DNA of 57,133 bases, taken from sequence record PV844354.1. One strand, given 5' to 3'. This DNA is from Pseudomonas phage EKU1. Positions 19,505-19,880 of the stretch are shown here, in pieces; within the stretch, counting starts at the first letter, position 1; every line of letters begins with the position of its first letter. A program made the translations under genes and the position numbers. Under the pieces are notes generated by a model that was not told where the DNA came from, ran no database searches, and saw nothing but the letters and a program-made list of their open reading frames with translations.

Positions 19505-19615
19505 GCCCGGAAGTATAGCCCGCTGGGCGGCGAAGGCGAGCGGAGAATCGGTGTGCGCTTGGGACGGGGGCCCGAACGCTTGACTTCGTGTGCTGAAGAA
19601 GTATGAAGTGGAGTA
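19505..19615 (-). promoter_or_regulatory. Two tandem −10-like promoter elements on minus strand (GGCTATACTTCCGGG at ~19515; CATACTTCTTCAGCAC at ~19597) upstream of the SNF2 gene
   Basis: Reverse complements match the conserved TATACTTCTTCA box. Confidence 0.4.
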
Positions 19616-19880
19616 GGCAGGGAAGCCCAGCGGGGCTGGGGGTTTATATATTCTTCTTCTTCTTCTTCTTAACTTACTTAACTTACTTACCTTAAACCCC
19701 CGGACGGCCTCCGAACAGCAGGAACGGTCGCCGGTCGCCTCCCTGGGCAGGGGGTCCCGGCGATTTATCGGGCGAAGTAGAACTGAACTGGAGAAAGTGA
19801 AGTAACCTAAGCGCAGGAGGGTCGGAGCTGTTACGGCGCTGGGCTTTCGATGGCGCTTGGGGTCTATACTTCTTCAGGTG
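19590..19880. repeat. Regulatory inverted-repeat element, copy A (TATATA, (TTC)7 microsatellite, ACTTAACTTACTTAACTTACTTACC iterons, AGTAACCTAAGCGCA, terminal TATACTTCTTCAGG box)
   Basis: Homologous, in reverse orientation, to 45000-45300 (see findings). Confidence 0.6.

Follow-up and report, generated by a model that had tools for sequence, protein, structure and literature searches.

A stretch of 57,133 nucleotides from Pseudomonas phage EKU1 (sequence record PV844354.1; the whole stretch is called the window below) contains two large intergenic stretches that are paralogous control regions of a Pseudomonas phage of the YuA/M6 type. We refer to them as module A and module B, or as copies A and B of one element. 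It is established that these regions hold promoters and terminators. To the reading that they are control modules of the genus Yuavirus, each with a convergent promoter pair, that act as transcriptional punctuation and as a temporal switch, we assign a probability of roughly 55%; this punctuation and switch module is the most economical reading of the data. For phage YuA the individual promoters, an antisense start and the terminators are already on record, as separate items.

Two paralogous regions, each with a probable pair of facing promoters

A first-pass annotation, made from the letters of the window, had proposed that a ~250-bp regulatory element at 19640-19880 recurs in inverted form at 45260-45000. 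The duplicate is real: window 19560-19900 (+) is collinear with the reverse complement of 44980-45320, the global alignment score of the copies lies 9.2 standard deviations above that of 200 dinucleotide shuffles (z = 9.2), and their identity is above background. The blastn matches between the copies comprise a 52-nt block (84.6% identity, E = 2e-12) and an exact 16-mer (E = 9e-5), and the identity outside the shared blocks is ~50%. The following words are found at these two places and nowhere else in the window: i) the 27-nt run CTTAACTTACTTAACTTACTTACCTTA, at 19668-19694 (+) and 45179-45205 (-); ii) the 16-mer AAGTAACCTAAGCGCA, at 19800-19815 (+) and 45061-45076 (-); and iii) TCGGGCGAA, at 19768-19776 (+) and 45098-45106 (-), which is part of a CGATTT..TCGGGCGAA box. 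Some details had to be amended: the shared run is exact over 27 and not 28 nucleotides, copy A having a T for the first A; both copies do contain a microsatellite, with the units (TTC)6.7 and (GATA)5, the latter preceded by TATA, and not with 7 and 6 units; and the TATATA assigned to both copies is present in copy A (19645-19650), copy B having CCATATAAAAC and TTTATAGATA instead.

The repeated short motifs and the AT-rich core that the annotation had pointed out do exist, and they are confined to the modules. No other 60-mers of the genome are as rich in AT as the two cores, which have 25% and 28% GC against 64% for the genome and 38% for the next lowest 60-mer; the spacer plus block of copy B ranks first in the window (25% GC) and that of copy A second. 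All five exact sites of CCYAAGCGCA in the window lie within the two modules. Over a 10-kb stretch around the element, more than 50 Pseudomonas phages of the genus Yuavirus (YuA, M6, LKO4, PAE1, MP1412 and others) match at 92-93% identity, and for the window as a whole the identity to LKO4, PAE1 and YuA is ~92%. Copy A is 98-99% identical to its counterparts in PAE1, LKO4 and MP1412, and the match of copy B to Yuavirus records is 85-94% (85% for YuA); when copy A of YuA was read directly the same blocks were present. The parts of module A and its direct surroundings are:

19540-19910 (-): module A, from the end of the late (tail/gp01) arc to the helicase arc; the gene-sense strand is minus
19503-19517 (-): helicase-proximal phage-type promoter, equivalent of YuA P003, with -10 TATACT at 19512-19517; outside the duplicated core
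19554-19563 (-): short repeat CCCAAGCGCA, inverted relative to CCTAAGCGCA at 19806-19815
19595-19605 (-): CATACTTCTTC, like the -10 of phage-type promoters and facing the helicase gene; inverted partner TACTTCTTC at 19867-19875
19645-19670 (+): TATATA plus (TTC)6.7, the fixed-length AT-rich spacer upstream of the block; (TTC)6.7 itself at 19651-19670
19668-19694 (+): 27-nt ACTTA block of three 9-mers, CTTAACTTA twice plus CTTACCTTA
19707-19908 (+): predicted antisense non-coding transcript of ~202 nt, equivalent to YuA TU005; its start G19707 is placed by alignment
19761-19776 (+): CGATTTATCGGGCGAA box, near-palindrome CGATWWATCG, in the overlap of the convergent transcripts
19782-19810 (-): sense sigma-70 promoter, with -35 TTAGGT at 19805-19810, a 17-bp spacer and -10 TTCAGT at 19782-19787
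19853-19902 (no strand): bidirectional terminator hairpin GCGCTTGGG...CCCAAGCGC, the stem of which includes TATACTTCTTCA; the orthologue is flanked by YuA T003 and T004

Those of module B are:

44960-45330 (+): module B, from the early/host-interaction arc to terS; the gene-sense strand is plus
44966-44975 and 44985-44994 (-): two more CCCAAGCGCA repeats, with an inverted partner CCTAAGCGGA at 45309-45318 (+)
45066-45094 (+): sense sigma-70 promoter, with -35 TTAGGT at 45066-45071, a 17-bp spacer and -10 TGAAAT at 45089-45094
45098-45114 (-): CGATTTCCTCGGGCGAA box
45179-45205 (-): 27-nt ACTTA block, an exact match to that of copy A
45206-45247 (-): (GATA)5 plus TTTATA and CCATATAAAAC, the AT-rich spacer of copy B; (GATA)5 and TATA at 45206-45225
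45396-45423 (+): terS-proximal sigma-70 promoter, equivalent of YuA P014 (TTGGCG, 16 bp, TATACT); outside the core, with the terS ATG at 45512

That the element is regulatory and carries promoters is supported by the promoters recorded and mapped in YuA. The GenBank record of YuA (NC_010116) lists promoter-trap promoters of 'medium activity (1000 MU)' on the gene-sense strand, in fragments 489-568 and 33014-33160, and both have the -35 TTAGGT within the conserved 16-mer, a 17-bp spacer and the -10 TTCAAT or TGAAAT. The sense promoter of copy A is the orthologue of the former (-35 at 509-514, -10 at 532-537) and that of copy B of the latter (-35 at 33048-33053, -10 at 33071-33076). The predicted sense starts are found near 19775 (-) in copy A, where the conserved 16-mer (19800-19815) covers the -35, and near 45101 (+) in copy B. 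For the opposite strand, ONT-cappable-seq of YuA recovered a start at 612(-), P002, which was classed as a 'phage promoter' (Putzeys et al. 2024, PMC10914365; bioRxiv 10.1101/2023.10.13.562163, supplement); the 50 nt listed upstream of this start consist of the microsatellite and the ACTTA block, the latter directly preceding the start (PMC10914365). The same data contain the termination sites T003 at 411(-), T001 at 60(-) and T004 at 471(+), the units from P002, marked 'antisense', that run to T003 (TU005, 201 nt) or to T001 (552 nt), and the proximal promoters P003 before the helicase gene and P014 before terS (PMC10914365). The ACTTA block of copy A, present in the P002 upstream sequence, thus provides the -35 and the spacer of an antisense 'phage promoter' that is orthologous to P002, and by way of TU005 and the orthologous hairpin copy A would have a discrete antisense transcript with its own promoter and terminator, as it does in YuA. 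In copy B an antisense start would lie near 45167 (-), by analogy with copy A only.

From the sense promoter-trap data and the antisense P002 data it therefore follows that each module is most likely a face-to-face promoter pair, with start sites ~67 nt apart. The predicted overlap of the convergent transcripts is ~69 nt in copy A (19707-19775) and ~66 nt in copy B (45101-45167) and contains the conserved CGATTTATCGGGCGAA box, which is located at about +1 to +15 of the predicted sense RNA of copy A and is the best-conserved block of the body among 14 representative copies. Both promoters of the module have an array of 9-mers that ends in CTTACC directly before the -10 hexamer, and because of these arrays they look like diverged inverted copies of each other. 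The promoter boxes had originally been described as facing outward, but the mapped promoters face inward. The TATACTTCTTCAGG box on the right-hand side of copy A, which had been taken for a -10, is part of the bidirectional terminator (YuA T003/T004), because the stem of the hairpin GCGCTTGGG...CCCAAGCGC contains that box. At the position of the CATACTTCTTC box no transcription start was mapped in YuA by ONT-cappable-seq. A terminator scan of copy A retrieved a small hairpin at 19626-19640, plus two terminator-like matches in a corrupted stretch (19972-19995).

The discrete 201-nt antisense transcript of YuA copy A, with its own start and terminator, would also suit a reading in which the copies are paralogous structured small-RNA genes and the blocks are kept for RNA folding or RNA-RNA pairing. 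By eye, small stems that flank the CGATTTRT loop change compensatingly between lineages; these stems failed alignment-based testing. RNAalifold on the 14 representative copies gave no consensus structure (-1.4 kcal/mol, no compensatory pairs), and no conserved stem-loops that could mediate antisense pairing were recovered. In comparison with shuffled sequences the RNA of copy A folds no better (z = -1.5) and that of copy B worse (z = +1.8), the sense and antisense strands fold equally well, and the single-sequence folds have no common fold. There was no Rfam match at gathering or at permissive thresholds, the tRNA scan found none, and the most conserved block lies upstream of the start and is absent from the antisense RNA. 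We consider small-RNA genes of this kind very improbable. Because no shared RNA structure and no Rfam match were found, the shared blocks are best explained as DNA signals, namely promoter elements and protein-binding sites.

The gene that precedes module A is gp01 (68-412 in LKO4, our L005; window 19906-20250 (-)). It encodes a small protein, the C-terminus of which resembles a membrane helix by eye, and it has its own sigma-70 promoter, YuA P001. The 552-nt P002 transcript covers gp01 entirely, and gp01 may therefore be a direct target of the antisense RNA.

A separate repeated promoter family, CTTTACTTCTTCGG-N10-CTATACTTCTTCA, often with a GC hairpin in the spacer, was found at 32437, 34470, 39601, 40342, 42092 and 51111 (+). 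These promoters correspond to the YuA 'phage promoters' P006-P016, which depend on a phage factor. Further TACTTCTTC sites are located on the minus strand at 9284, 12032 and 17417; in total TACTTCTTC occurs 42 times where ~4 occurrences are expected.

Gene context, native orientation and quality of the EKU1 record

Essentially all genes annotated in LKO4, in CN1 and in the examined regions of YuA share a strand. Two large intergenic regions interrupt the circular map: copy A occupies the one between gp01, the last late gene, and the helicase gene that heads the replication arc, and copy B separates the early/host-interaction genes from terS, the head of the structural arc. By position the modules of the window are orthologous to those of Yuavirus and Vojvodinavirus, as both are found at the same places (gp01-helicase and early genes-terS). 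Each copy had been thought to lie where a leftward operon starts and a convergent operon ends. The flanking gene sets are in fact co-directional at each copy and none is convergent: around copy A both run leftward (gp01 and the tail genes end at ~19906, the helicase gene starts at ~19478) and around copy B both run rightward (the early genes end at ~44856, terS starts at 45512).

The inverted relation of the copies is a property of the window only. In the 17 Yuavirus records that are present in both the copy A and the copy B match lists the two copies are direct repeats, because each of these records is matched on one strand by copy A of the window and on the other by copy B, and they are also direct repeats in Bordetella phage CN1 (Vojvodinavirus). 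Comparison with LKO4 by blastn showed that window 14-30981 equals the reverse complement of LKO4 50725..61818 plus 1..20763 and that window 30982-57133 equals LKO4 22452..49199 in forward orientation, so that with respect to the native order the left 31 kb of the window are reversed relative to the right 26 kb. At the two breakpoints, i.e. the junction and the window ends, ~1.7 kb (LKO4 20764-22451) and ~1.5 kb (LKO4 49200-50724) are missing. The defects of the record are:

30981-30982 (no strand): chimeric junction where LKO4 50725 (minus strand) is fused to 22452 (plus strand), the source of the inverted look
11431-11544, 25039-25105, 28588-28689 and 37882-37943: examples of homopolymer runs and low-complexity insertions without a counterpart in LKO4
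42250-42386, 42942-43068 and 49539-49793, and also 41611-42620: further examples of such runs and insertions
19899-19990, 19474-19492 and 31778-32224: local corruption with respect to PAE1 and LKO4

The junction lies within genes, fusing a tail-completion gene to the middle of the primase gene, and is far from both copies. The window has 41 homopolymer runs of 9-29 nt, mostly of G or C, against no runs of 9 nt or longer in LKO4, and its GC content is 66.9% against 64.4%; the runs and the low-complexity insertions look like sequencing or assembly artefacts. The corruption at 19899-19990 has damaged the right edge of copy A, where the 3' arm of the terminator (which reads CCCAAGTGT) and the 3' end of gp01 are overwritten by homopolymer-rich sequence. 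Moreover, the ATG of the helicase gene reads ACG and the gene is broken into several open reading frames, and the C-terminus of the primase is frameshifted. The window looks like two poorly assembled contigs that were joined in arbitrary orientation. A mis-orientation by the assembler had been suggested at the outset, and the window is indeed mis-joined; the inverted layout of the copies is an assembly artefact, but the repeats are not the cause of the mis-join, as the breakpoint is at 30981/30982. The window is chimeric and error-laden and unfit for inferring genome rearrangement. The practical upshot for the EKU1 record is that its "25-kb inverted repeat" is an artefact.

Conservation across phage lineages

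We collected ~70 copies of the module from at least 7 lineages by scanning viral contigs and by retrieval via the helicase, terS and primase genes. Throughout this collection, and across genera, the ACTTA block is close to invariant. Lineages II and III have the variant CTTACCTTACTTACC, copy B of lineage IV has ...CTTGGG and lineage V has ...CTTAACTAG. The microsatellite varies in its unit but not in its length: the same stretch is occupied by (TTC)6, (GATA)5 or (ATT)5-6, and in copies that lack a TTC unit the length is restored by an extra TA (L029) or by ATCC in place of ATTC (YuA). This constancy of length under a changing unit shows that the spacing is constrained, and it speaks against phase variation. 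Contingency loci that toggle expression by slippage would be in line with the position of the tri- and tetranucleotide repeats (5-7 units), directly upstream of a promoter. The comparison of repeat length among relatives that the annotation had proposed nevertheless revealed no variation: the length is essentially constant among the copies, lost units are compensated, and TTC, GATA and ATT are interchanged at the same length, which leaves contingency loci scarcely credible.

The 8-mer AACCTAAG is exclusive to the modules: all 16 sites are found there (LKO4 3/3, CN1 7/7, Ab20 3/3, window 3/3), where chance would give ~0.6 per genome. In CN1 and in module B of LKO4 the sites flank the core on both sides and point inward. 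The sequence of the module repeat differs by lineage (AACCTAAGCGCA, AAGGTAAGCGCA, AAGTCAAGCGCA and AACTCAAGTCGC). The layout with two modules was also recovered in Vojvodinavirus CN1, in the uncultured GC-rich lineages II, III, IV and VII (the pair of lineage VII being deduced from different contigs of the same sample), in Abidjanvirus and in an uncultured phage of low GC content. The low-GC phage (IMGVR_UViG_3300043400_000014, 53 kb; L015, L038, L094) has near-identical direct repeats of ~290 bp upstream of helicase and terS, with a perfect CTTAACTTACTTAACTTACTTACC block in sense orientation, a second array that faces the block, and GTTAAG/CTTAAC repeats. Abidjanvirus belongs to a different subfamily and its helicase is 50% identical; a ~300-bp module occurs twice, upstream of helicase and terS. 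In Ab20 (LN610585.1, L170) the modules at 88-387 and 31281-31580 are native inverted repeats, 82% identical over 304 nt and ~31 kb apart, and despite the inversion helicase and terS share a strand; the other Abidjanvirus records listed, among them Ab18, Ab19 and PaMx11, have a collinear arrangement. The comparison of lineages therefore indicates that the module is old, roughly dyad-symmetric and functional in either orientation relative to its neighbours.

For the part that comprises the upstream region plus the block, the two copies within a genome are 89-90% alike versus 54% to their counterparts elsewhere (CN1, lineages II and III), and on contig L135 one recombinant copy was found, a copy A with a copy-B-like 5' body. 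Because the likeness within genomes often exceeds that between lineages, and because of this recombinant, we conclude that the copies exchange sequence. Such exchange would be expected if the repeats were recombination substrates, which flip a 25-kb segment, as had been suggested for the window, or which serve as boundaries where co-infecting phages swap replication and structural arcs. Several observations oppose this. The copies are direct in Yuavirus (the 17 records) and Vojvodinavirus (CN1), so that recombination between them would delete and not invert, and the breakpoint of the inversion in the window is away from the repeats. A Gin/Hin-type invertible segment finds no native inverted repeats in these records, and no adjacent recombinase, invertase or integrase gene is annotated in LKO4 or CN1. 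In Abidjanvirus the copies are inverted, yet helicase and terS keep the same relative orientation in Ab18, Ab20 and PaMx11, the three records that could be checked for both genes. Exchange moreover explains the likeness of the copies but not the conservation of their sequence, and a primary role in recombination is highly unlikely.

The position of copy B, 300-450 bp upstream of terS, and the arrays of short repeats, which are typical of binding sites of the small terminase subunit (TerS), would fit a headful packaging (pac) recognition site, and Yuaviruses have been reported to be circularly permuted headful packagers. Against this, an equally conserved copy is located ~35 kb away, upstream of the helicase gene, and the starts of the public records reflect annotation habit and not mapped ends; we regard a pac site as even less probable than recombination substrates. 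At least one test thus contradicts each of four readings: inversion through the repeats, a pac site, a pair of structured small-RNA genes and a microsatellite that acts as a contingency locus.

A scan of bacterial genomes with the 22-mer of the block returned tandem 9-mer satellites in unrelated AT-rich bacteria and phage contigs in metagenome-assembled genomes; no Pseudomonas-titled contig was returned (8 of the 23 loci inspected). Sequences like the Yuavirus and Vojvodinavirus modules are found in the contigs DYKZ01000001.1 and DYKZ01000002.1 of a metagenome-assembled genome of Anaerolinea thermophila (L135, L141, L149, L153) and in such contigs of Microbacteriaceae (L154, L155), and the two large contigs among them, of 112 kb and 81 kb, have two block matches each. 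These contigs are probably mis-binned phages or concatemer assemblies. Yuavirus module sequence is also present, at 91-98% identity, in ON165687.1 (Sphaerotilus phage SN1) and PP337211.1 (Escherichia phage ERS-1, 175 kb), the latter matching at three places, and the host assignment or the integrity of these two records looks doubtful.

Another observation on public records concerns gp16 of LKO4 (L005 13028-13591) and gp13 of CN1, which lie inside the replication arc and are annotated as 'terminase small subunit'. This gene matches the family of 5-hmdU (5-hydroxymethyldeoxyuridine) DNA kinases (PF18748, E = 5e-17), and we therefore assign it to the thymidine hypermodification pathway and not to a second TerS.

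Transcriptional switch, replication origin and comparison with known systems

In the reading that we favour, the modules would divide the one-directional genome into an early/replication arc headed by the helicase gene and a late/structural arc headed by terS. In each module a host sigma-70 promoter, with its -35 TTAGGT in the conserved 16-mer, would point along the genes, and a phage-type promoter on the opposite strand would have the near-invariant 27-bp array of 9-mers as its -35 and spacer, and the fixed-length AT-rich microsatellite upstream of it; the two start sites, ~67 bp apart, would face one another. In YuA-infected cells copy A makes, from its antisense promoter, the ~200-nt non-coding RNA, which crosses the sense promoter and stops at the bidirectional terminator; the same hairpin ends the preceding late operon and would so block read-through. 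Antisense transcription, perhaps with pairing of the antisense RNA to the first ~67 nt of the sense RNA, may shut off or block host-driven and read-through transcription, after which each arc would be driven from its own proximal promoter (the equivalents of P003 and P014). The AACCTAAG/CCYAAGCGCA repeats and the CGATWWATCG box are putative binding sites of a phage DNA-binding protein. Interference between the promoters, firing of an antisense promoter in copy B and the binding of a protein are what we infer here.

A number of results weigh against this switch. [quoted passage not shown] Both central promoters match the sigma-70 consensus too poorly for a simple scan: in our sigma-70 and terminator scans these two experimentally supported promoters were missed and the equivalent of P014 alone was recovered. 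The stretch of 27 invariant base pairs exceeds the needs of an ordinary promoter. One module of Abidjanvirus is flipped relative to the downstream gene, from which it follows that the core cannot be the promoter that drives the downstream arc; its action must be independent, and this would suit an origin just as well. Finally, across five lineages gp29 (double helix-turn-helix) and the C-terminus of gp30 do not clearly co-vary with the repeats; the co-variation is suggestive at best, and lineage V contradicts it.

The main rival, which is compatible with the switch, holds that the modules are replication origins, or an origin and a second cis-acting replication site, where initiator-bound repeats flank an AT-rich unwinding element; the resident promoters could activate or prime initiation, and the antisense RNA could control a sense primer RNA in a ColE1-like manner. 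In LKO4, the window and Ab20 the cores are by far the most AT-rich 60-mers (25-33% GC versus ~64%), the core is flanked on either side by inward-pointing 8-mers that are exclusive to the modules, and short repeats are clustered specifically at these loci (the 9-mer arrays, AACCTAAG with 16 of 16 sites, and CCYAAGCGCA with 5 of 5). The change of the repeat sequence between lineages and the ability of the module to work in either orientation relative to its neighbours agree with an origin as well. Moreover, the phage encodes a fused primase and superfamily 3 (SF3) helicase (RepB_primase, DUF5906, a weak Pox_D5 match), and the alpha protein of phage P4, which is of the same fused class, recognises 8-mer repeats that lie at two separate sites, ori and crr. 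In gp30 the variability is highest in the last 50 residues, which are 48-62% alike in lineages with different repeats, versus 72% in CN1; among solved structures the helicase domain of NrS-1 is the sole sequence match of gp30. On the other hand, the cumulative GC and AT skew of LKO4 is flat and does not turn at the modules, in lineage V the repeat type and the candidate recognition segment of gp30 do not go together, copy B adjoins terS, which is an atypical place for an origin, and every feature seen is also explained by the mapped promoters and terminators. We hold an origin function to be a tentative, clearly less probable alternative. Its fuller version has twin replication sites like ori/crr of P4 or oriL/oriR of SPP1, a primase-helicase that reads AACCTAAG-type 8-mers, convergent promoters that activate or prime, antisense control of the ColE1 type, and conservation across the Mesyanzhinovviridae in either orientation; this version we rate as somewhat more doubtful still.

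In the accessible literature, the YuA paper of 2008 excepted, we found nothing that describes the two regions as paralogues or that mentions their convergent geometry, the invariant 27-mer, the spacer of fixed length with its interchangeable units, the module-exclusive 8-mer or the family-wide conservation with flexible orientation. A full-text search for 13-mers of the block gave unrelated primer sequences only, and there was nothing on these regions in the BAPR preprint, the Lydia paper and the directed-evolution paper. A family of Pseudomonas and Bordetella phages of therapeutic relevance keeps two copies of a dyad-symmetric control module. The 27-bp core, the spacer with its constant length and the exclusive 8-mer provide handles for finding the factor behind the 'phage-specific' promoters of YuA-like phages, for locating the replication origin of these phages and for the design of engineered phages. 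The interest for phage biology is modest but real.

The intergenic promoters and the antisense unit of YuA are direct orthologues, with the same positions and motifs and an identity of 85-99%. Beyond these, the modules resemble pR/pL of coliphage 186 and Pe/Pc of P2, where promoters on opposite strands fire across tens of base pairs and each transcript crosses the other promoter. The switches of 186 and P2 are single-copy, decide between lysis and lysogeny and have known repressors, whereas the Yuavirus module is present twice per genome, both transcripts are apparently non-coding near the core, and the interference is putative. Like OL and OR of lambda, the modules are two paralogous clusters of promoters and putative protein-binding sites that are kept alike within the genome and would control two gene sets; the lambda clusters, however, drive divergent early operons and bind CI and Cro, and the Yuavirus core is not the proximal promoter of the downstream genes. 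In ori/crr of P4, oriL/oriR of SPP1 and the origins of the Staphylococcus aureus pathogenicity islands (SaPIs) short repeats flank an AT-rich region, and the modules share with these systems the flanked AT-rich core, the two separated copies, the independence of orientation and a phage-encoded protein of the fused primase/SF3-helicase class as putative initiator; this is a comparison of sequence layout. As with RNA II and RNA I of ColE1, the antisense RNA is complementary to the 5' end of the sense RNA and the sense transcript runs towards an AT-rich region; the overlap is ~67 nt versus 108 nt, no conserved stem-loops were found, and a role as primer is putative. The PeSL (promoter/stem-loop) cassettes of T4-type phages are similar in that they are repeated regulatory cassettes at module boundaries and possible recombination points. 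PeSLs are many, short and of the early-promoter type, and their description fits the separate CTTTACTTCTTCGG-N10-CTATACTTCTTCA promoter family better than the two large modules.

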